Shown: positions 13,568 to 21,142 of the stretch, one piece after another
Numbering within the stretch: the first letter of the stretch is position 1
Layout of the letters: every line of letters starts with the position of its first letter
Assembly (NCBI GenBank): GCA_014727915.1
Contig: WJMO01000013.1
Span: 1-33,167 of the forward strand
Length of the DNA: 33,167 nt
Origin: Candidatus Altiarchaeales archaeon
GTDB taxonomy: Archaea > Altiarchaeota > Altiarchaeia > IMC4 > SCGC-AAA252-I15
Direction of reading: 5' to 3'
Notes under the pieces: generated by a model
What the model saw: the letters and a program-made list of their open reading frames with translations, nothing else
The model's database searches: none
What the model was told of the DNA's origin: nothing
Position numbers and translations under genes: made by a program

Positions 13568-15040
13568 TCAGTTGATGTATCCGAGCGATTTCAGATCTTC
13601 AGCGGTCTCAGCGCCGTATTGTACGACCTTCCGATCTCGGTCGTACGGCCTGTACTCTTCTTCCAGGAACCTGTCCATAAGGGGCTTGAGGTACATGCCC
13701 TCCGTTGGCATCCCGTATATGTTCCTCGCCTCCCCAGGGTCGTTCTTGAGGTCGTATAATTCGTATTCGCCGCCGGTCATGATCTGCCGGTCTATCTCAT
13801 CCGGGACTTTTATTAGCTTCCACCGGCCGTCGGTGAGTATCTTCTGGTAGTCTATCGCGTAGCCTGCGCTCGAGAATACCACCCGGTCCTCCTCCTTCCC
13901 CAGCATCAGGGGCTTCAGGCTTTCTCCGTCGCTGGGGTATTCCAAACCCAACATATCCAAGAGCGTGGGAAACACGTCTATCAGGTTGACGGCGGATTTC
14001 ACACGCCTGCCCTTGAGGCGGGGGTGGTATATCATCAGCGGAACCTTCAATGATGGGTTGTAGGCCAGCCTCCCATGTTGGAAGTATGAGCTGTGTTCGC
14101 CCAGGTCCTCCCCGTGGTCCGCCCAGATAACGATGATCGAGTTCTCCATCAGGCCCATCTCCCCTATCTCATCCAATAGCACCCCGATCTGGTCGTCGGT
14201 CTTCCTGACTTCCCCGTCGTATCGTGCGATGTAATCGCCCAAGACCTTTGTCTTCCCTGACACGACGGTGCATGTGACGTCCGGGCTGTTTATGGAACCC
14301 TTCCTCTGCTTCTCATAATCGTTCGGCCAACCGCCGCTTACCAGTTGGAGGCTGAACCTCTTGTCCTTGGGGCAGATCTTGACCTCTATGCTGCCGTTAT
14401 AGTGCCTGTCGTTCATGTACATCGTCTGGTATTCTCCGCCCGGGCTGTAGGGCGTGTGCGGGTCTATGTAGTGGACCCAGTAGAGGAACCTCCCGCCATC
14501 GAGTCTTTTGAGGTCCTTCACGGCGTATTTTGTGGCTCCCCTGGCGTTATAGCCCCTGGTGAGAAGGAAGTCGAATCCCTGGTCCAGGTTGCTCATGTTC
14601 CCTGCGCTGGGATTCGTCACCAGCCCCCCAGTACTGTAGCCCTGTGCCTTCAGTATCTCCGGCAGCAGCACCAGGTCCTCGTCAAGCCACTGATACAGTG
14701 TTATGCGCTCTATACCCGTCTTATAAGGGTGCAATCCCGTGAAGAAGGATGCGAAGCTGGGCGTGGTCTTCGGCCAGGGAGTGTATGCGTTCTCGAACAG
14801 GACGGCCTTCTCGCTGAAACCGTCCAGGTAGGGGGTGGTATCCCTCCCATAACCATACATGCCCATGTGATCCGCCCGCAGAGCATCCACTGATATGAGT
14901 ATGACATTGCAGTCCTGGCAGGAGTAGTCTGCGTACCCCATCAAGTACCCGATCTCACCCCAGTTGAGCTTCAAAAAAACCGCAAGTAAGACTGCAAGCC
15001 CACATGCCAGCAGGATCCTCACCCTAAGCTTCTTTTCCAC
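13568..15040 (-). CDS. Membrane-anchored sulfatase-like hydrolase/transferase (alkaline phosphatase superfamily)
   Basis: N-terminal TM; NVILISVDALRADH, TP.LD, PKTTPSFASFFTG, HYIDPH.PY, YDGEV..D, ADHGE, VPL and ELYDL..DPGE motifs. Confidence 0.88.
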   Translation of the reverse strand: MEKKLRVRILLACGLAVLLAVFLKLNWGEIGYLMGYADYSCQDCNVILISVDALRADHMGMYGYGRDTTPYLDGFSEKAVLFENAYTPWPKTTPSFASFFTGLHPYKTGIERITLYQWLDEDLVLLPEILKAQGYSTGGLVTNPSAGNMSNLDQGFDFLLTRGYNARGATKYAVKDLKRLDGGRFLYWVHYIDPHTPYSPGGEYQTMYMNDRHYNGSIEVKICPKDKRFSLQLVSGGWPNDYEKQRKGSINSPDVTCTVVSGKTKVLGDYIARYDGEVRKTDDQIGVLLDEIGEMGLMENSIIVIWADHGEDLGEHSSYFQHGRLAYNPSLKVPLMIYHPRLKGRRVKSAVNLIDVFPTLLDMLGLEYPSDGESLKPLMLGKEEDRVVFSSAGYAIDYQKILTDGRWKLIKVPDEIDRQIMTGGEYELYDLKNDPGEARNIYGMPTEGMYLKPLMDRFLEEEYRPYDRDRKVVQYGAETAEDLKSLGYIN

Positions 15041-15082: not shown

Positions 15083-16480
15083 TCATGTCCTTTCAGCCAC
15101 TGTCGTCCCGTCCTTCCTGTCAACAACCCGTATGCCCCTCTCCAGCAGCAGGTCCCTTATCCTGTCAGCTTCAACATAGTTCTTCTCCCTTCGATGCCTG
15201 TTCCTCTCCTCCATTAGATATCTCTCATCATCTTTTAGTGTGACTGTGTCGTATTCCACGTCCAACCCTGTAACAGACATCAGCTCGTCGAATATGCGGA
15301 TGGAATTTTCGATGGACTTCCTGGACTGGCCTCCACCTTCCAAGAGCGTGTTTATGTCCCGCAAGGTTTCGAACACCGCTGCCATCGCCTGTGGCGTGTT
15401 GAAATCATTGTCCATGTGGCTGATGAAATTCTCTCTCAGCTCCTCCGACATCTTTCCCGCGCTGTTGCCTCCGTCCTCGCCGGCGTCATCCAGATTCTCC
15501 CCCAATTTTTTCCTGTAGTTCCTGAGCCTCGCCACTGCCTGCTCCGCGCTCGCAATGTTGTCTTCGCTGTAGTCGACGGGGCTACGGTAGTGCGTCTGCA
15601 ATATGAACAGCCTGAGCGCGTCCCTGCTGTGGAACTTGAGGAATTCCCTGACTGGGAGTATGTTGCCGAGGCTCTTGCTCATCTTCTCCCCGGAGGACTG
15701 GAGGAACCCGGTGTGCAGCCAGTACCTGACAAAGGGTTTTCCACCCGTCAACGACTCGCTCTGGGCTATCTCGTTCTCGTGGTGTGGGAATATGAGGTCC
15801 AACGCCCCGCCGTGGATGTCTATCCTGTCACCCAGGCACTTCCTAGACATGGCCGAGCATTCGATGTGCCAACCCGGACGACCCCGCCCCCAGGGACTTT
15901 CAAAACCGGGTTCATCCTCTCCCACGCTCTTCCACAGTGCGAAGTCCACCGGCGACCTCTTACCCGGGTCGTGTTCTATCCTATGCTCCACCAGCTGCTC
16001 TACATCCTGGTTGGACAGCCTCCCATACTCTGGATGCGATTCCACGCTGAAGTAGACGTCTCCCCCAACCTCATAGGCGCAGCCCTTCCCCACCAATGTC
16101 TCCACCGCCCCAATGATCTCCTCGATGTTCTCCGATACCCTGGGGTAGTCGTCCGCCTCCAATAGCCCCAGCTCACGCCGGTCCTCGGCTGCCCTGTCCG
16201 CGTACATGCTCGCCAGCTCCAGCGGGTCAACCCCTCTCTCGCCTGCCCTCCGGATTATCTTGTCATCCACGTCCGTTATGTTCTGCACATGGGACAACTC
16301 ATACCCCCTGTACTTGAGGTACCTGAATATGACGTCGAAGGCGAGGTAGGTTCTCGCATGCCCTATGTGCATGTCGTCGTAGACGGTCAGCCCGCACACG
16401 TACGCCCTAACCCTACCCTCCTCTAACGGCGTGAACGCCTCCAACTCCCGGGTCAACGTGTTGTAAACCTTCAAGGCCAT
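15083..16480 (-). CDS. cysS: Cysteine--tRNA ligase
   Basis: YVCGLTVYD, HIGH, NITDVDDKII, DFALWK, GRPGWHIEC, DLIFPHHENE and KMSKS motifs. Confidence 0.98.
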   Translation of the reverse strand: MALKVYNTLTRELEAFTPLEEGRVRAYVCGLTVYDDMHIGHARTYLAFDVIFRYLKYRGYELSHVQNITDVDDKIIRRAGERGVDPLELASMYADRAAEDRRELGLLEADDYPRVSENIEEIIGAVETLVGKGCAYEVGGDVYFSVESHPEYGRLSNQDVEQLVEHRIEHDPGKRSPVDFALWKSVGEDEPGFESPWGRGRPGWHIECSAMSRKCLGDRIDIHGGALDLIFPHHENEIAQSESLTGGKPFVRYWLHTGFLQSSGEKMSKSLGNILPVREFLKFHSRDALRLFILQTHYRSPVDYSEDNIASAEQAVARLRNYRKKLGENLDDAGEDGGNSAGKMSEELRENFISHMDNDFNTPQAMAAVFETLRDINTLLEGGGQSRKSIENSIRIFDELMSVTGLDVEYDTVTLKDDERYLMEERNRHRREKNYVEADRIRDLLLERGIRVVDRKDGTTVAERT

Positions 16481-16489
16481 GTTATCTTT

Positions 16490-16563
16490 AGCGAGGGGAG
16501 GGATTCGAACCCTCGAATAACAGCTTTGCAGGCCGCCCCATTAAACCGCTCTGGCACCCTCGC
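16490..16563 (-). tRNA. tRNA-Cys(GCA), intronless, CCA not encoded
   Basis: Acceptor stem GCGAGGG/CCCTCGC, discriminator U73, anticodon arm GCGGC-CTGCAAA-GCTGT, T arm GAGGG-TTCGAAT-CCCTC. Confidence 0.95.
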
Positions 16564-16571
16564 ATAATCTT

Positions 16572-17156
16572 TCATATCATCCACTCCGGCTCCTTGCTGC
16601 ATGCTTCACAGGGGTCTTTGAGCCGCTGGTAGCATCCCTCCATTATCCTCAACCGTCCCTTGGGGCACACTACAGTCGAGTCCTCTGGTATGTCGTCGAC
16701 TATGACCGCCAGCGCCCCAACTTTGGAGTTCTTCTTCACCGTCACAGGACCGAGTATGGTAGCTCCCACACCCACTGTGACGTTGTCCTCTAATGTCGGG
16801 TGTCTTTTCTCCCCTTTCCTGTCCCTCCACCACCCATGACCTCCCAGTGTCACCCCATGGTATAGCATCACGTTGTCGCCTATCTCGGCAGTCTCCCCTA
16901 TCACCACCCCGGTGGCGTGGTCTATGAAGAATCCCTTGCCTATCCTGGCGGCCGGGTGGATTTCCGCCCCCGTGAGGAACCGGCCGAAGTATGATATCGC
17001 CCTGGGTACCACCGGCACACCCATGCTGTGGAGGCCGTGGGCTATCCTGTATAGTAGGATGGCCTGGACCCCTGGGTAAAGCAAGACTTCAACGTAGCCT
17101 AGCCCGCCCTTCAATGCCGGGTCCTTCTCATATGCGGCTTTGACCGTGTCAAGCAT
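16572..17156 (-). CDS. cysE: Serine O-acetyltransferase
   Basis: [44 protein letters not shown] and KRHPTL motifs; GAGGAGG SD before ATG 17156; C-terminal Ile. Confidence 0.95.
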
Positions 17157-18075
17157 GTTCCCTCCTCTCATACAATGGTGTAGACAGGTATCTTTCCCCG
17201 GTGTCCGGGAGTATCACCACCACCCTCTTGCCCCTGCCGAGTTTCCCAGCCACTTGCAGTGCGGCCCAGGTGTTGGCCCCGGATGATATGCCCACGAGCA
17301 GCCCCTCCTCCGATGCCAGTCTTTCGCTTGTGTTGAAGGCGTCTTCGTTCTTCACCTTGATGATCTCGTCTATCAGGCCAACGTCGAGTATGTCCGGCTT
17401 GAACCCTGCTCCTATGCCCTGTATCTTATGGGCTCCTGGTTTTCCGCCTGAGAGCACGGGCGAATCCTCCGGCTCTACTGCGATGAACCTGGCCGTTGGG
17501 TGCTTCTCCTTCAGCGCCTGGGCGACTCCGGTTATGGTTCCGCCTGTGCCGACCCCCGCGATGAACGCGTCGAATTCCCCGATTTCATCTTCCAGTTCCC
17601 TGGCGGTGGTTTCCCTGTGGGCTTTCACGTTGGCGTTGTTCTTGAACTGCTGGGGTATGAACACGTGGGGGTCTTCCCCGCCGAGTTCCTCCGCCTTATC
17701 GACCGCGCCCTTCATGCCCTTCGCGCCTTCGGTTAGCACGAGCTCCGCGCCGTAGGCTTTCAGTATCTTCCTCCGTTCCATGCTCATCGTGTCTGGCATG
17801 GTTAGCTTAAGACTGTAGCCTTTCACAGCCGAGACCATTGCCAGCCCGATCCCGGTGTTGCCGGATGTGGGTTCCACGATGATGCTGTCCTCTTTCAGCA
17901 CTCCCTCTCTCTCGGCCTCTTCTATCATGTAAAGTGCTATCCTGTCCTTGACAGAGGAGCCGGGGTTGAAGTATTCTATCTTGGCTATGACTTCCGCGTC
18001 TTCCGGTCCTGTCATATTGTTCAAACGCACGTGCGGCGTTTTTCCGATGGTTTGTGTTATGTTGTCGTATATCAT
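17149..18075 (-). CDS. cysK: Cysteine synthase A (O-acetylserine sulfhydrylase)
   Basis: [14 protein letters not shown] (PLP Lys), [24 protein letters not shown] and DTGERYLST motifs; ATG 18075 follows a GAGGTGA SD. Confidence 0.97.
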
Positions 18076-18129
18076 GAATATCACCTCATATCTTTTTTTT
18101 TTGGTTTTTAGGGATAGGATAAGTGGAAA

Positions 18130-18147
18130 GTAGGGACTAACCCCTAC
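18130..18147 (-). terminator. Candidate attenuator hairpin overlapping the leader ORF stop codon
   Basis: GUAGGG-G-UUAG-U-CCCUAC (6 bp plus a G.U pair, 4-nt loop), followed by the pyrimidine tract UUUCCACUUAUCCUAUCCC. Confidence 0.55.
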
Positions 18148-18193
18148 AGCAGCAACAGCGACAGTCGCCGGACCTAGGATGAAAACCATTCAT
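18137..18193 (-). CDS. Poly-cysteine leader peptide [18 protein letters not shown] upstream of cysK
   Basis: ATG AAT GGT TTT CAT CCT AGG TCC GGC GAC TGT CGC TGT TGC TGC TGT AGG GGT TAG; 5 Cys in 6 codons; ends 61 nt before the cysK ATG. Confidence 0.8.
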
Positions 18194-18195
18194 TT

Positions 18196-18209
18196 TTAAC
18201 AATTGTTAA
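18196..18209. promoter_or_regulatory. Operator-like palindrome TTAAC-AATT-GTTAA at the cys leader promoter
   Basis: Perfect 14-bp palindrome between a minus-strand TTTTTATA (18227-18234) and the leader ATG. Confidence 0.7.
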
Positions 18210-18354
18210 GTATAAGGCGTGGCTCATATAAAAACATGGCAGTTCCCGACAGGTCCCAATAAAACAAAAATAATATATAATATATAAAATTTTTCTTAAA
18301 TTATTTAAAAAAAATGCTACTGTCCTCTCTGTTCTGCCTTTGCTGCTTTTATAC

Positions 18355-18367
18355 TTAACGGCGTTAA
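18355..18367. promoter_or_regulatory. Operator-like palindrome TTAAC-GGC-GTTAA at the regulator promoter
   Basis: Directly after TTTTATA (18347-18353) and 8 nt before ATG 18376. Confidence 0.6.
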
Positions 18368-18375
18368 TCTCTACT

Positions 18376-18675
18376 ATGAAGCTGCCGTGCGAGACTGCAT
18401 TGTGGTATGTGCTCCCCCAGATACGGGCCGACCTGAGCCGCGCCCTCGTCAAGGAGGGCATGAGCCAGAAGGAAGTCGCGGACGTGCTGGGCATAACCCC
18501 CGCCGCAGTATCACAGTACATCCATAAGAAGCGCGGGGGCAAGATCAAGAGGACCAAGGAGTACAATGATCTGGTCAGGGATTCGGCCAAGAAGATACTC
18601 AAGTCAAAGGACGATGTTGCGGTGAGGGGGATAATCTGCAGGTGCTGCGCCGTCGGCCAGAAGTCAATGGACTGA
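18376..18675 (+). CDS. Archaeal HTH transcriptional regulator (COG2522-like, without ThiN domain)
   Basis: MKLPCE...YVLP.IRA.L...L...GMSQ.EVA..LGITPAAVSQY...KRG; C-terminal ICRCC; apparently leaderless. Confidence 0.88.
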   Translation: MKLPCETALWYVLPQIRADLSRALVKEGMSQKEVADVLGITPAAVSQYIHKKRGGKIKRTKEYNDLVRDSAKKILKSKDDVAVRGIICRCCAVGQKSMD

Positions 18676-18678
18676 ACC

Positions 18679-19815
18679 TTAACTGCCGTACTCCCTTTCT
18701 TCGCGTTCTATGAAGCCAACCAGCACGTTCCCCAACGTGTTGTTGTATACTAGGAAGGCGTCGTGGCCGTAGGGCAGGTCCAGCTTCCTGTATGTGGTGG
18801 GCGCCCCCGCCTCCGCCAGGCCCTCGTATATCTCCTCGACCTGCTCTGGAGGATACAGCCAGTCCGAGGTGAATGATACGAGCAGGAACCTGGACTTAAC
18901 GTCTTTGAACGCGTCTCTCAAACTCTTTGCCCCTCCTTCTGTGAGGTCGAACTGGTCGATGGCGTGGGTTATGTACAGGTAGCTGTTGGCGTCGAACCGC
19001 CTTACGAAGCTGTTGCCCTTGTACTGCAGGTAGCTTTGTATCTCGAACTCAACGCCGAACTTCTTCCTCGGCTTCTCGTTCTTCCGGTTCCTGTTGAACT
19101 TCCTCTCCAGCGTGTCCTGGCTCAGGTATGTTATGTGCCCCACCTGCCTTGCCAATGCCAGCCCGTCCGCCGGCCTGGATGAACCATAGTAGTCGCCTCC
19201 CTTCCACCGGGGGTCCTTTTGTATGGCCTGCCTTCCGATCTCATGGAATGCTATGCCCATGGGGTACTGTTTGGCTGCCGTGGCTATCGCGATCACCGAA
19301 TGCACGTATCCGGGGTATTCCAGACTCCACTGTAGCGCCTGCATGCCTCCTAGGCTACCCCCCGCCACCGCGAACAGCTTCTTAACTCCCAGGTGGTCGA
19401 GCAGCTTCCTCTGGGCTCTCACCATGTCCCTCACCGTCACAATTGGGAAGTCCAGGCCGTATGGTCTTCCGGTCTCCGGGTTTGTCGAGGAGGGTCCTGT
19501 GGAGCCCTTGCAGCCTCCGACCACGTTGGAGCAGACTATGAAGTACTTGCGCGTGTCGAAGGTCTTGCCCGGCCCCACTGCCACGTCATACCACCCGTGC
19601 TTCCTGCTGTTACGCCTGTGCTTTCCCGCTGCGTGGGCGTCGCCGCTCAGCGAGTGACATATGAGTATCGCGTTCGTGCCTTCTTTGTTGAGACCGCCGT
19701 ATGTTTCATAGGCTATGCGGACGTCCTCCAGTTTTTCGCCGCTTTCCAACTCTAATACGCCCAAGTCGTAGTGTCTGGCCTTCACGACCCCCATTGAACC
19801 ATCTTTCTTCGCCAA
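18679..19815 (-). CDS. metX: Homoserine O-acetyltransferase
   Basis: [29 protein letters not shown] nucleophile elbow, RFDANSY, DWLYP and GHDAFL motifs. Confidence 0.95.
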
Positions 19816-19820
19816 TTACC

Positions 19821-21113
19821 TCACACTCCCTTCAACGCTTGGTTGATGTCTTCTATGATGTCGTCGATGTTCTCCAACCCTGTGGAAAGCCTTACCAGCC
19901 CTGGTGTTATCCCCCCGCTCAACTGCTGTTTCTCTGTCAGCTGGCTGTGTGTGGTGCTGGCAGGGTGTATCGCCAGGCTCTTCGCGTCCCCCACGTTAGC
20001 GAGGTGGGAGAAAAGTTCCAGTGATTCTATGAACTTCCTGCCTGATTTGGCTCCGCCTTTGACCTCGAATATGGCCATCGCCCCGTATCCGTTCTTCAGG
20101 TACTTTTTCGCGTTGTCGTGGGTTGGGTGCGTGTCCAATCCGGGGTACCTGACCCACTCGACGTTTTCATGCGCTTCAAGGTGTTCCGCGACCGCTTGAG
20201 CGTTCCTACAGTGCCTTTCCATCCTAACGGGGAGGGTCTCAAGCCCCTGGAGGAAGATCCATGAGTTGTCCGGGGATATGCACCCTCCCAGGTTCCTCAA
20301 TGGCACGAGCCTCATCCTCAGTATGTAGGCCAGTGGTGTCAGTTCGCCCAGGTCGTGGGCGTATCTTATCCTATGGTAGCTTTCGTCTGGTTCCGTTAGC
20401 AGCGGGTGCTTGTCCGATTTGCTCCAGTCGAAGTTTCCCGAGTCGACAACTGCCCCTCCTATGCCTGTGCCGTGTCCGCCTATCCACTTTGTCAGCGAGT
20501 GTGCTACTATCTCGGCTCCGTGTTCGATGGGCCTTAGCAGGTAGGGTGTCGTGAACGTGCTGTCGACTATGTAGGGTATGCCGTTGTCGTGGGCGATCTC
20601 GGATATTGCCTTGAAGTCGGGCACGTTCAATACGGGGTTCCCGATGGTCTCGGAGTATAGTGCTTTCGTGTTTTCTGTTATTGCCTTACTGTAGTTGTCT
20701 GGGTCTGTGGGGTCTGCGAAGTTGACTTTGATGCCGAGGTCTGGCAGTATGTTGTTGAACTGGGTGTAGGTTCCCCCGTACAGGTCGTTCGCGGACACGA
20801 TCTCGTCCCCGACTCTCGCAAGGTTTATTATGCTGTAGAATATGGCGGTGGTGCCTGATGACAGGGCGAGTCCTCCGACTCCTCCTTCAAGGGAGGCCAG
20901 CCTCTTCTCGAGCACGTCCGTTGTGGGGTTCATCAGCCTCGTGTATATGTTTCCCAGTTCCTTCAACCCGAACAGGTTCGCGGCGTGTTCAGTGTCTTTG
21001 AAGATGTAACTGCTTGTCCTGTACAATGGAACCGCCCTTGACAGTGTCGTCGGGTCAGGCTCCTGCCCTGCGTGGAGCGCTTTTGTCTCCAGTCTTTCTC
21101 CTTCTGACTTCAT
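19821..21113 (-). CDS. metY: O-acetylhomoserine sulfhydrylase (aminocarboxypropyltransferase)
   Basis: [35 protein letters not shown] (PLP Lys) and [20 protein letters not shown] motifs. Confidence 0.96.
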
Positions 21114-21128
21114 CTTAACACCAACTTC

Positions 21129-21142
21129 TTAACAATCGTTAA
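21129..21142. promoter_or_regulatory. Operator-like palindrome TTAAC-AATC-GTTAA at the metY-metX promoter
   Basis: 13/14 identical to the cys site; lies between a minus-strand TTTAAAA (21148-21154) and the metY ATG. Confidence 0.7.

Follow-up and report, generated by a model that had tools for sequence, protein, structure and literature searches.

A tRNA-Cys gene wedged between cysE and cysS in a Candidatus Altiarchaeales genome: a candidate self-contained module for direct cysteine decoding

Why should a gene for tRNA-Cys lie between cysE and cysS with only a few nucleotides to spare on either side, and how would such a tRNA, and the cysS mRNA that follows it, be made? The question is raised by contig WJMO01000013.1 of a Candidatus Altiarchaeales archaeon (assembly GCA_014727915.1), of which positions 1 to 33,167, a stretch of 33,167 nucleotides (nt), were analysed; this whole stretch is called the window below. 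On its minus strand the window carries cysK, cysE, a tRNA-Cys(GCA) gene and cysS, in that order. Cysteine is, to our knowledge, the only amino acid whose aminoacyl-tRNA can be made in two ways: by a direct route, here represented by cysK, cysE and cysS, and by an indirect route through SepRS and SepCysS. A notable finding is that the wedged tRNA is an isodecoder of its own, linked to the direct route; the default of the phylum is the SepRS route, which has its own linked tRNA. On balance we think it probable that the four genes form a self-contained direct-route cysteine module in a phylum otherwise making Cys-tRNA via SepRS and SepCysS.

Genes of the module and a second route in the same genome

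The four genes were assigned with family models and tRNA searches (Table 1). For cysE, the score obtained with NF041874 (serine O-acetyltransferase EpsC) exceeds the cut-off of 150, and the match to TIGR01172 (194.6 bits) falls just under the cut-off of 210.65. The cysK and cysE reading frames overlap by 23 nt. As read from the sequence, an 8-nt spacer (AAGATTAT) separates the cysE stop codon from G1 of the tRNA, and a 9-nt spacer (AAAGATAAC) separates U73 of the tRNA from the cysS ATG. Gene order, coordinates and both spacers agree with an earlier sequence-only reading of this DNA, which had also held that cysS lacks a Shine-Dalgarno (SD) sequence, that the junctions leave no room for promoters and that the genes amount to a self-contained cysteine-decoding module. 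These claims stood up as well. No SD motif like that of cysK is seen ahead of cysS in the window, and about 13 of 16 relatives, judged by eye, likewise have no clear SD ahead of cysS. The junctions are too short for an archaeal TATA-type promoter, and no run of five or more T residues (the archaeal terminator signal) is found on the 3194 nt of sense strand that extend from a leader open reading frame (ORF) ahead of cysK to beyond cysS (18193 to 15000). Finally, the genes of the module are jointly present or absent in related genomes, as described below.

The assembly comprises 1.81 Mb in 13 contigs. Judged by its gene content, the host genome is archaeal; its archaeal marks include several tRNA genes with introns. 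The archaeal RNase P RNA model was matched over its full length at 80.5 bits, just below the gathering score of 84, and both RNase Z (344.8 bits) and an archaeal CCA-adding enzyme (403.4 bits) are encoded, with scores above their cut-offs. Away from the contig of the window, the same genome encodes SepRS (TIGR00470, 492.4 bits; cut-off 380.65) and SepCysS (TIGR02539, 500.8 bits; cut-off 365.25), and two extra tRNA-Cys(GCA) genes lie on contig 12, at 288354-288426 and 398294-398415. A single archaeon here holds both Cys-tRNA routes and more than one tRNA-Cys.

The second of the extra genes (398294-398415) has G37 and a 49-nt intron, and is located 241 nt upstream of SepCysS, with a 57-codon helical ORF between the two. 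Rfam at its gathering score did not detect this intron-bearing gene, which was found with ARAGORN (introns allowed) and with a model of our own, R1 (55.7 bits). Mukai et al. 2017 described a tRNACys-SepCysSn-SepCysS-SepRS operon in 'Ca. Bathyarchaeota' BA2, and tRNACys adjoining SepCysS or SepRS elsewhere (PMC5424206; the papers cited in this text are drawn on in excerpt). The tRNA-Cys(G37), small ORF and SepCysS of contig 12 stand in the same order as tRNACys-SepCysSn-SepCysS in that report. The window shares with the BA2-type arrangement the linkage of a tRNA-Cys gene to the enzymes that load it; it differs in that the cases of that report, as excerpted, belong to the indirect route, whereas the window combines the direct route with an A37 tRNA. 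By eye, the gene that follows this group of tRNA, small ORF and SepCysS (contig 12, 398294-399763) resembles one for a ThiI-like PP-loop protein.

Two types of tRNA-Cys

The wedged tRNA-Cys has the anticodon GCA, A37, the discriminator U73 and a G13-A22 mismatch; it has no intron, and its CCA end is not encoded. U73 is an identity element (PMC8762117). The wedged tRNA (type A) differs from the two contig 12 genes (type G) in the acceptor arm, the D arm and position 37. Type A has the acceptor stem GCGAGGG, the D arm GCCAGAG and the anticodon loop CUGCAAA, giving A37, whereas type G has the acceptor stem GCUGGGG, a D arm of GGCCAAG or UGCCUAG and the loop CUGCAGA, giving G37. Each type is chromosomally linked to one of the two routes. 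A37 is usual in bacteria; the archaeal state is G37, in the form of m1G37, which serves archaeal SepRS as an identity element (PMC5424206, PMC8762117).

A covariance model made from ten tRNA-Cys genes was run over the 41 nearest genomes, and its matches were fetched and aligned. The surveyed genomes are related and incomplete, and the counts given here and below describe a pattern, not a statistical test. Type A was found in 14 genomes (G000, G001, G002, G004, G006, G008, G009, G011, G012, G013, G016, G020, G022 and G024); of the 15 genomes with a full-length CysRS of at least 52% identity, it is present in 14. It is located directly 3' of cysE in 12 of these 14 genomes and on another contig in the remaining two (G004 and G016). 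Type G was found in 26 genomes, three of them with intron-bearing genes that were detected only by BLAST of the 5' half. Of the type-A genomes that hold SepRS, 10/11 also have type G. In G004, G016 and G022 (92, 88 and 82% complete, respectively), type A alone was found, with neither SepRS nor type G. Genomes without CysRS gave only type G, with a single exception, the second tRNA of G035. In nine type-A genes, 12 of the 19 stem pairs of the cloverleaf show compensatory changes and none is broken. The type-A gene carries an intron in four genomes (G001, G006, G013 and G022), which indicates that type A is handled as an archaeal tRNA.

On these patterns, the A37 type goes with the CysRS route and the G37 type tracks SepRS; each type is inherited together with its route across the phylum, by a link that is not absolute. 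Several observations weigh against a strict pairing. Archaeal CysRS and SepRS are said to share identity elements, m1G37 included (PMC8762117). The exception among the 15 CysRS genomes, G007, has a CysRS (52% identity) and only a G37 tRNA, yet SepRS was not found there; its CysRS is the most divergent of the 15, and the gene is convergent to cysK-cysE. Conversely, G002 holds SepRS, yet no type G was found in it. The second tRNA of G035 (G035:C4:59230-59303) has A37 on a type-G body in a genome (84% complete) in which no CysRS was found. In a separate observation, G007 gave 24 tRNA-model matches, including 71-nt bacterial-looking tRNAs and, on contigs 4 and 38, a pair of unusual tRNA-Cys(A37) genes; this surplus may be contamination or a mobile tRNA array.

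No description of a direct-route module with its own A37 tRNA was found in the literature (open-access papers and preprints). In this phylum each route has a tRNA type of its own that is linked to it on the chromosome. The phylum, which has genomes with one route, the other or both, offers a natural experiment on how cells with both routes share the work between them. The module is small enough for a direct test of the two tRNAs with the two enzymes.

Distribution of the module in the phylum

A sample of 61 genomes of the phylum was searched with cut-offs of E <=1e-40 for cysS, E <=1e-30 for cysE and E <=1e-60 for cysK. The genes were found in 17, 15 and 16 genomes, respectively, and the three sets of genomes are nearly identical; the module thus behaves as a unit in gain and loss. 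SepRS, by comparison, was found in 31/41 of the nearest genomes, and the direct route is a minority add-on in the phylum. The order cysK-cysE-tRNA-Cys(-cysS) is seen in 12 genomes that belong to three families of one order. Because this order recurs in 12 genomes and the tRNA stems covary, the arrangement is, on the evidence of the sequences, not due to chance. Outside the phylum, a tRNA-Cys gene lies within 3 kb at only one of 80 cysS loci, mostly bacterial, among the matches listed, and that sole case is a G37 tRNA at a distance of 2.4 kb from cysS.

Synteny in relatives had been proposed as a check of the sequence-only reading. The gene order is kept, but the tight junction of tRNA and cysS is found only here (9 nt) and in G013, where the tRNA ends 11 nt upstream of the cysS ATG. 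The same-genus G001 has a copy of the last 20 nt of the tRNA 10 nt upstream of its cysS ATG, and an intact, intron-bearing tRNA approximately 125 nt upstream of this copy. These loci suggest that the tight junction may be old in the genera of G001, G013 and the window.

The surroundings of the tRNA in relatives contain repeats and tRNA pieces. Where tRNA and cysS are 97-185 nt apart, the spacer is often filled with hairpin repeats. One such repeat, CTTTCTTTC...GAAAGAAAG followed by AAACGTTGACGA, occurs both in tRNA-cysS spacers and in the introns of G37 tRNA-Cys genes in several genera, with examples in G009, G002 and G011. It has the look of a small element that is mobile or processed. Pieces of type-A tRNA also occur around the cysE-cysS gap, among them 3' ends in duplicate, mini-hairpins of the acceptor stem and 5' fragments that contain GCGAGGGTGCTGGAGT. 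Past cysE in G004 (contig C48), four or more such units are arrayed. It is possible that these pieces are scars of duplication or integration.

Probable co-transcription of the module and excision of the tRNA

How the wedged tRNA is expressed is best approached from its junctions. Co-transcription of the module, with excision of the tRNA by RNase P and RNase Z, is in our judgement the probable course, if not strongly so. The leader ORF, cysK, cysE, the tRNA and cysS would be transcribed as one RNA, in which RNase P would cut 8 nt past the cysE stop codon and RNase Z after U73. The excised tRNA would receive its CCA from the CCA-adding enzyme, and the cysS mRNA would begin with a 5'-phosphate and an SD-less leader of 9 nt, to be translated like a leaderless archaeal mRNA. 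As long as the precursor is uncut, initiation would be hindered by the stable acceptor stem, at a distance of 9 nt from the AUG, such that processing would turn cysS translation on.

The sequence has the layout of tRNA punctuation: the tRNA and the coding regions that adjoin it share a strand, and neither a promoter nor a terminator is seen at the junctions. At most standalone tRNA genes of this genome, the DNA 25-45 nt upstream is AT-rich and TATA-like, and at several of them T-rich DNA follows. The wedged tRNA, by contrast, is preceded by GC-rich coding DNA, with no TATA-like stretch at -25 to -45, and followed by AAAGATAACATG. Several standalone cysS genes have TATA-like boxes positioned for a short or absent leader; an RNase Z cut that leaves 9 nt ahead of the ATG would give the same kind of mRNA.

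The classical parallel is mitochondrial tRNA punctuation, in which tRNAs lie between coding regions and cuts by RNase P and RNase Z make the mRNA ends. The present locus is similar in having a tRNA between coding regions of the same strand and in that the downstream mRNA would be almost leaderless. It differs in belonging to a free-living archaeon with ordinary promoters elsewhere, in having one such junction within a 3-kb operon, in that its cuts are predicted from the sequence and in that its spacing varies among relatives. An archaeal parallel is provided by Haloferax, in which RNase P and tRNase Z free RNAs that are flanked by tRNA-like elements and the downstream piece keeps a 5'-phosphate (PMC4326828). 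As in the window, a tRNA-like structure within a longer transcript sets the 5' end of what follows (5S rRNA, or an engineered CRISPR RNA, in the t-elements of Haloferax volcanii); the difference is that the Haloferax cases of that report, as excerpted, are tRNA-like elements beside non-coding RNAs, whereas here a true tRNA stands beside the mRNA of its own synthetase. If RNase Z makes the cysS mRNA end, a free-living prokaryote would provide a natural example of an mRNA of the leaderless type that arises when a tRNA is excised.

Several observations weigh against co-transcription and excision, and most of them bear on an account in which the neighbours are transcribed separately: the tRNA from a weak promoter in the 3' part of cysE, and cysS from a start in or just past the tRNA, as a primary leaderless mRNA, with the close spacing reflecting compaction. 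To find no T-run in 3.2 kb is no more than mildly unusual, approximately two being expected by estimate. In 7/9 genomes with the tRNA directly before cysS, 97-185 nt lie between them, and in G024 this spacer holds a TATA-like box approximately 25 nt before the ATG, positioned for a leaderless cysS mRNA. A terminator-like T7 run is located between the tRNA and the cysS ATG in G013, and another just ahead of the tRNA in G001, where it follows a conserved cysE end (GTGATATAG) at approximately -25 from the tRNA. Standalone cysS genes in G004, G016, G020 and G022 have AT-rich upstream DNA of their own, and that of G020 even has an operator-like AACAATTGTT. The long spacers, the TATA-like box and the T7 runs make separate transcription likely in some relatives, and by the same token punctuation is not a conserved necessity. 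In the window, GATAAT approximately 85 nt upstream of the tRNA and GATATGAAAG at -19 to -7 make a weak promoter within cysE possible. We nonetheless regard separate transcription as rather unlikely in the window, where GC-rich coding DNA fills the 70 nt upstream of the tRNA, the sole AT-rich stretch (-18 to -1) is too near the tRNA for a TATA box, the 30 nt upstream of the cysS ATG consist of the T arm and acceptor stem (GGTTCGAATCCCTCCCCTCGCT) with no TATA-like box, and no T-run follows either cysE or the tRNA.

The wedged tRNA might instead be a passenger, that is, a scar of integration or duplication that is functionally unconnected with the genes around it. Both processes are frequent at tRNA genes, and the tRNA pieces described above fit this idea: a second tRNA 3' end in G001 and G012, tRNA 5' fragments in G008, G011, G013 and G020, the array of 5'-fragment hairpins past cysE in G004, and the hairpin repeats shared by spacers and introns. 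However, an intact tRNA is found directly past cysE in 12 genomes of three families, with a cloverleaf that covaries without a broken pair; the wedged tRNA belongs to a type of its own, which is found together with CysRS; and the neighbourhood of tRNA-Cys and cysS is nearly absent from the listed, mostly bacterial loci outside the phylum. We consider the passenger account very unlikely. Slightly fainter still is the chance that the unprocessed tRNA acts as an operator in cis, with CysRS binding the precursor and blocking the AUG 9 nt downstream, for which the autoregulation of E. coli thrS is an analogue. This would be compatible with processing, and is favoured by geometry only: the acceptor end lies 9-11 nt from the cysS AUG here and in G013, and in G001 the duplicate of the tRNA 3' end is kept at 10 nt from the AUG. 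In most relatives the spacer is long, so a conserved mechanism it cannot be.

Table 1. Features of the cysteine module and its upstream region in the window.
Feature	Position	Strand	Basis or remark
HTH_3 regulator, 99 amino acids (aa), divergent from the operon	18376..18675	+	Pfam HTH_3, 28.6 bits; synteny
TATA-like box TTTTTATAT, putative operon promoter	18226..18234	-	read from sequence
Palindromic candidate operator TTAACAATTGTTAA, between TATA box and leader ORF	18196..18209	.	sequence conservation; binding predicted
Cys-rich leader ORF, 18 codons, 5 Cys	18193..18137	-	comparable ORF upstream of cysK in relatives
Hairpin GUAGGG/CCCUAC, leader stop codon in loop	18147..18130	-	minimum-energy fold, -9.5 kcal/mol, z -0.84 (weak)
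SD GAGGTGAT of cysK, 4 nt upstream of ATG	18080..18087	-	read from sequence
cysK (O-acetylserine sulfhydrylase, cysteine synthase A), 308 aa	18075..17149	-	TIGR01139, 439.1 bits (cut-off 351); Pfam PALP
cysE (short-form serine O-acetyltransferase), 199 aa	17171..16572	-	NF041874, 190.4 bits; Pfam Hexapep
tRNA-Cys(GCA), type A isodecoder	16563..16490	-	ARAGORN; Rfam RF00005, 57.8 bits (gathering score 29)
9-nt spacer AAAGAUAAC, putative cysS mRNA leader after predicted RNase Z cut	16481..16489	-	read from sequence
cysS (cysteinyl-tRNA synthetase), 465 aa	16480..15083	-	TIGR00435, 502.7 bits (cut-off 340); Pfam tRNA-synt_1e and DALR_2

The Cys-rich leader ORF

The sequence-only reading had placed the whole module under a leader that senses Cys-tRNA and so controls synthesis enzymes, tRNA and synthetase together. 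A Cys-codon-rich ORF does precede cysK, with its ATG 2 nt past a candidate operator, and this part of the claim stood; it gives the proposed feedback loop a real basis in the sequence. There is no T-box or Rfam riboswitch, and no model of an RNA switch could be made for the window. A candidate protein regulator and its operator are found on the same promoter (see below).

A comparable leader ORF was found in 13/14 cysK upstream regions examined, G007 being without one. The N-terminal parts of the predicted peptides vary, and the last ten codons are Cys-rich and mostly end in C-Q-C-R-L/V. In ten leaders, TGY codons account for 37/236 codons in frame, as opposed to 3/226 in each of the other frames; the share of Cys in the long ORFs of the genome is 1.6%. 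Ribosomes on this ORF would report the supply of charged tRNA-Cys, and to regard the ORF as a possible sensor of charged tRNA-Cys is a reasonable reading of its composition.

In minimum-energy folds, the stop codon lies in a hairpin loop in 10/10 leaders, with the last sense codons forming the 5' arm. These hairpins come from single-sequence folds with z scores of -0.35 to -5.9, several of them no better than shuffles. RNAalifold, applied to an ungapped alignment around the leader stop codon, did not recover the hairpin because the loop lengths differ. A run of five or more T residues is present in 9/13 leaders (G003 and G020 counted), those without being the leaders of the window, G001, G008 and G004; in seven of ten measured leaders it lies 41-54 nt past the leader stop codon.

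Two other mechanisms were considered and rejected. An Rfam scan of the window at gathering score gave no T-box or riboswitch in the leader, and a scan of 17900-18500 at E up to 10 gave five weak matches, none of them a T-box; a T-box leader was rejected on this ground. Sequestration of the cysK SD by the Cys tract was rejected after constrained folding of ten leaders, in all of which the GGTGA ahead of cysK is kept, as no consistent switch was seen: masking the Cys tract changed the probability that the SD is unpaired from 0.47 to 0.32 here and from 0.16 to 0.39 in G006, and by 0.05 or less in the other eight.

In Firmicutes, T-box leaders are found on cysE-cysS or cysS genes. The likeness to the present locus is that cysteine biosynthesis and cysS stand under a candidate sensor of tRNA-Cys charging; the difference is that the candidate here is a translated ORF. 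A closer parallel is found in mycobacteria, in which polycysteine leaderless short ORFs are cysteine-responsive attenuators and one of them, Rv2334A, precedes cysK1-cysE (Canestrari et al., bioRxiv 10.1101/834739). The archaeal leader resembles them in being a short first ORF ahead of cysK-cysE, with Cys codons clustered towards its 3' end and a start at or near the transcript 5' end. In the mycobacterial case, as given in the excerpted preprint, pairing takes place between the Cys tract and the SD of the gene that follows, whereas no such switch was seen in the ten leaders here. The leaders described here also differ in the T-runs, in the placing of the stop codon within a hairpin loop, in their archaeal host and in the presence of the tRNA and synthetase genes in the operon.

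The most far-reaching picture would be that of two largely separate systems, one of A37 tRNA, CysRS and cysteine from CysK and CysE and the other of G37 tRNAs with SepRS and SepCysS, in which the direct-route module is switched by ribosome stalling on the Cys-rich leader and tRNA excision makes the cysS mRNA. We offer this only tentatively and think it unlikely to hold as a whole. No amino-acid-sensing leader peptide in Archaea was found in the literature (open-access papers and preprints), and switching by the leader, if true, would be the first described in this domain. If the leader senses charged tRNA-Cys, ribosome-mediated attenuation would extend to Archaea; the mechanism would have to differ from that of bacteria, since archaeal termination needs only a T-run.

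Predicted promoter, operator and HTH_3 regulator

A conserved promoter region precedes the leader ORF. In 10 operator-bearing genomes, a TTTTTATA-like box is located 17-18 nt ahead of the operator; G004 has a TATA-like box and no recognisable operator. The operator ahead of the leader ORF is conserved in relatives, and its pattern, TTAAC-N4-GTTAA, has four matches in the 1.81-Mb genome, compared to approximately one expected. The divergent HTH_3 gene adjoins cysK in six genomes, and a further two have it at another place in the locus; its product has a Cys5 and a C-x-C-C motif near the C-terminus that are conserved in eight orthologues. A related palindrome, TTAAC-GGC-GTTAA, is found in the promoter of the HTH_3 gene itself, at about 18355-18367. 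Most likely, the operon is repressed by the HTH_3 protein at the TATA-proximal operator, as part of what would be a small sulfur amino-acid regulon. A 142-aa minus-strand ORF (18174..18602) without a family match was rejected as a shadow of the plus-strand HTH_3 gene.

Just upstream, also on the minus strand, are metY (21113..19821), which was named from synteny and a tblastn query, and metX (19815..18679; NF001209, 493.5 bits). The same operator, here TTAACAATCGTTAA, stands at 21129-21142, with a TATA-like box on one side and the metY ATG on the other, and the cysteine and methionine genes seem, from these sites, to be under one regulator. A third perfect copy of the operator listed in Table 1 is on contig 5 (80241). 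The gene whose likely start lies 7 nt past this copy encodes a winged-helix regulator (MarR/DUF7343 domains) with a membrane anchor, and has no obvious sulfur link. The fourth operator-like site is TTAACGTAGGTTAA, at C11:1179.

Neighbouring genes

On the other side of the module, a minus-strand gene of the sulfatase family (13568-15040; Pfam Sulfatase, 156.3 bits) begins approximately 40 nt past the cysS stop codon. A sulfatase-like gene is also found in G004, approximately 3 kb upstream of cysS.

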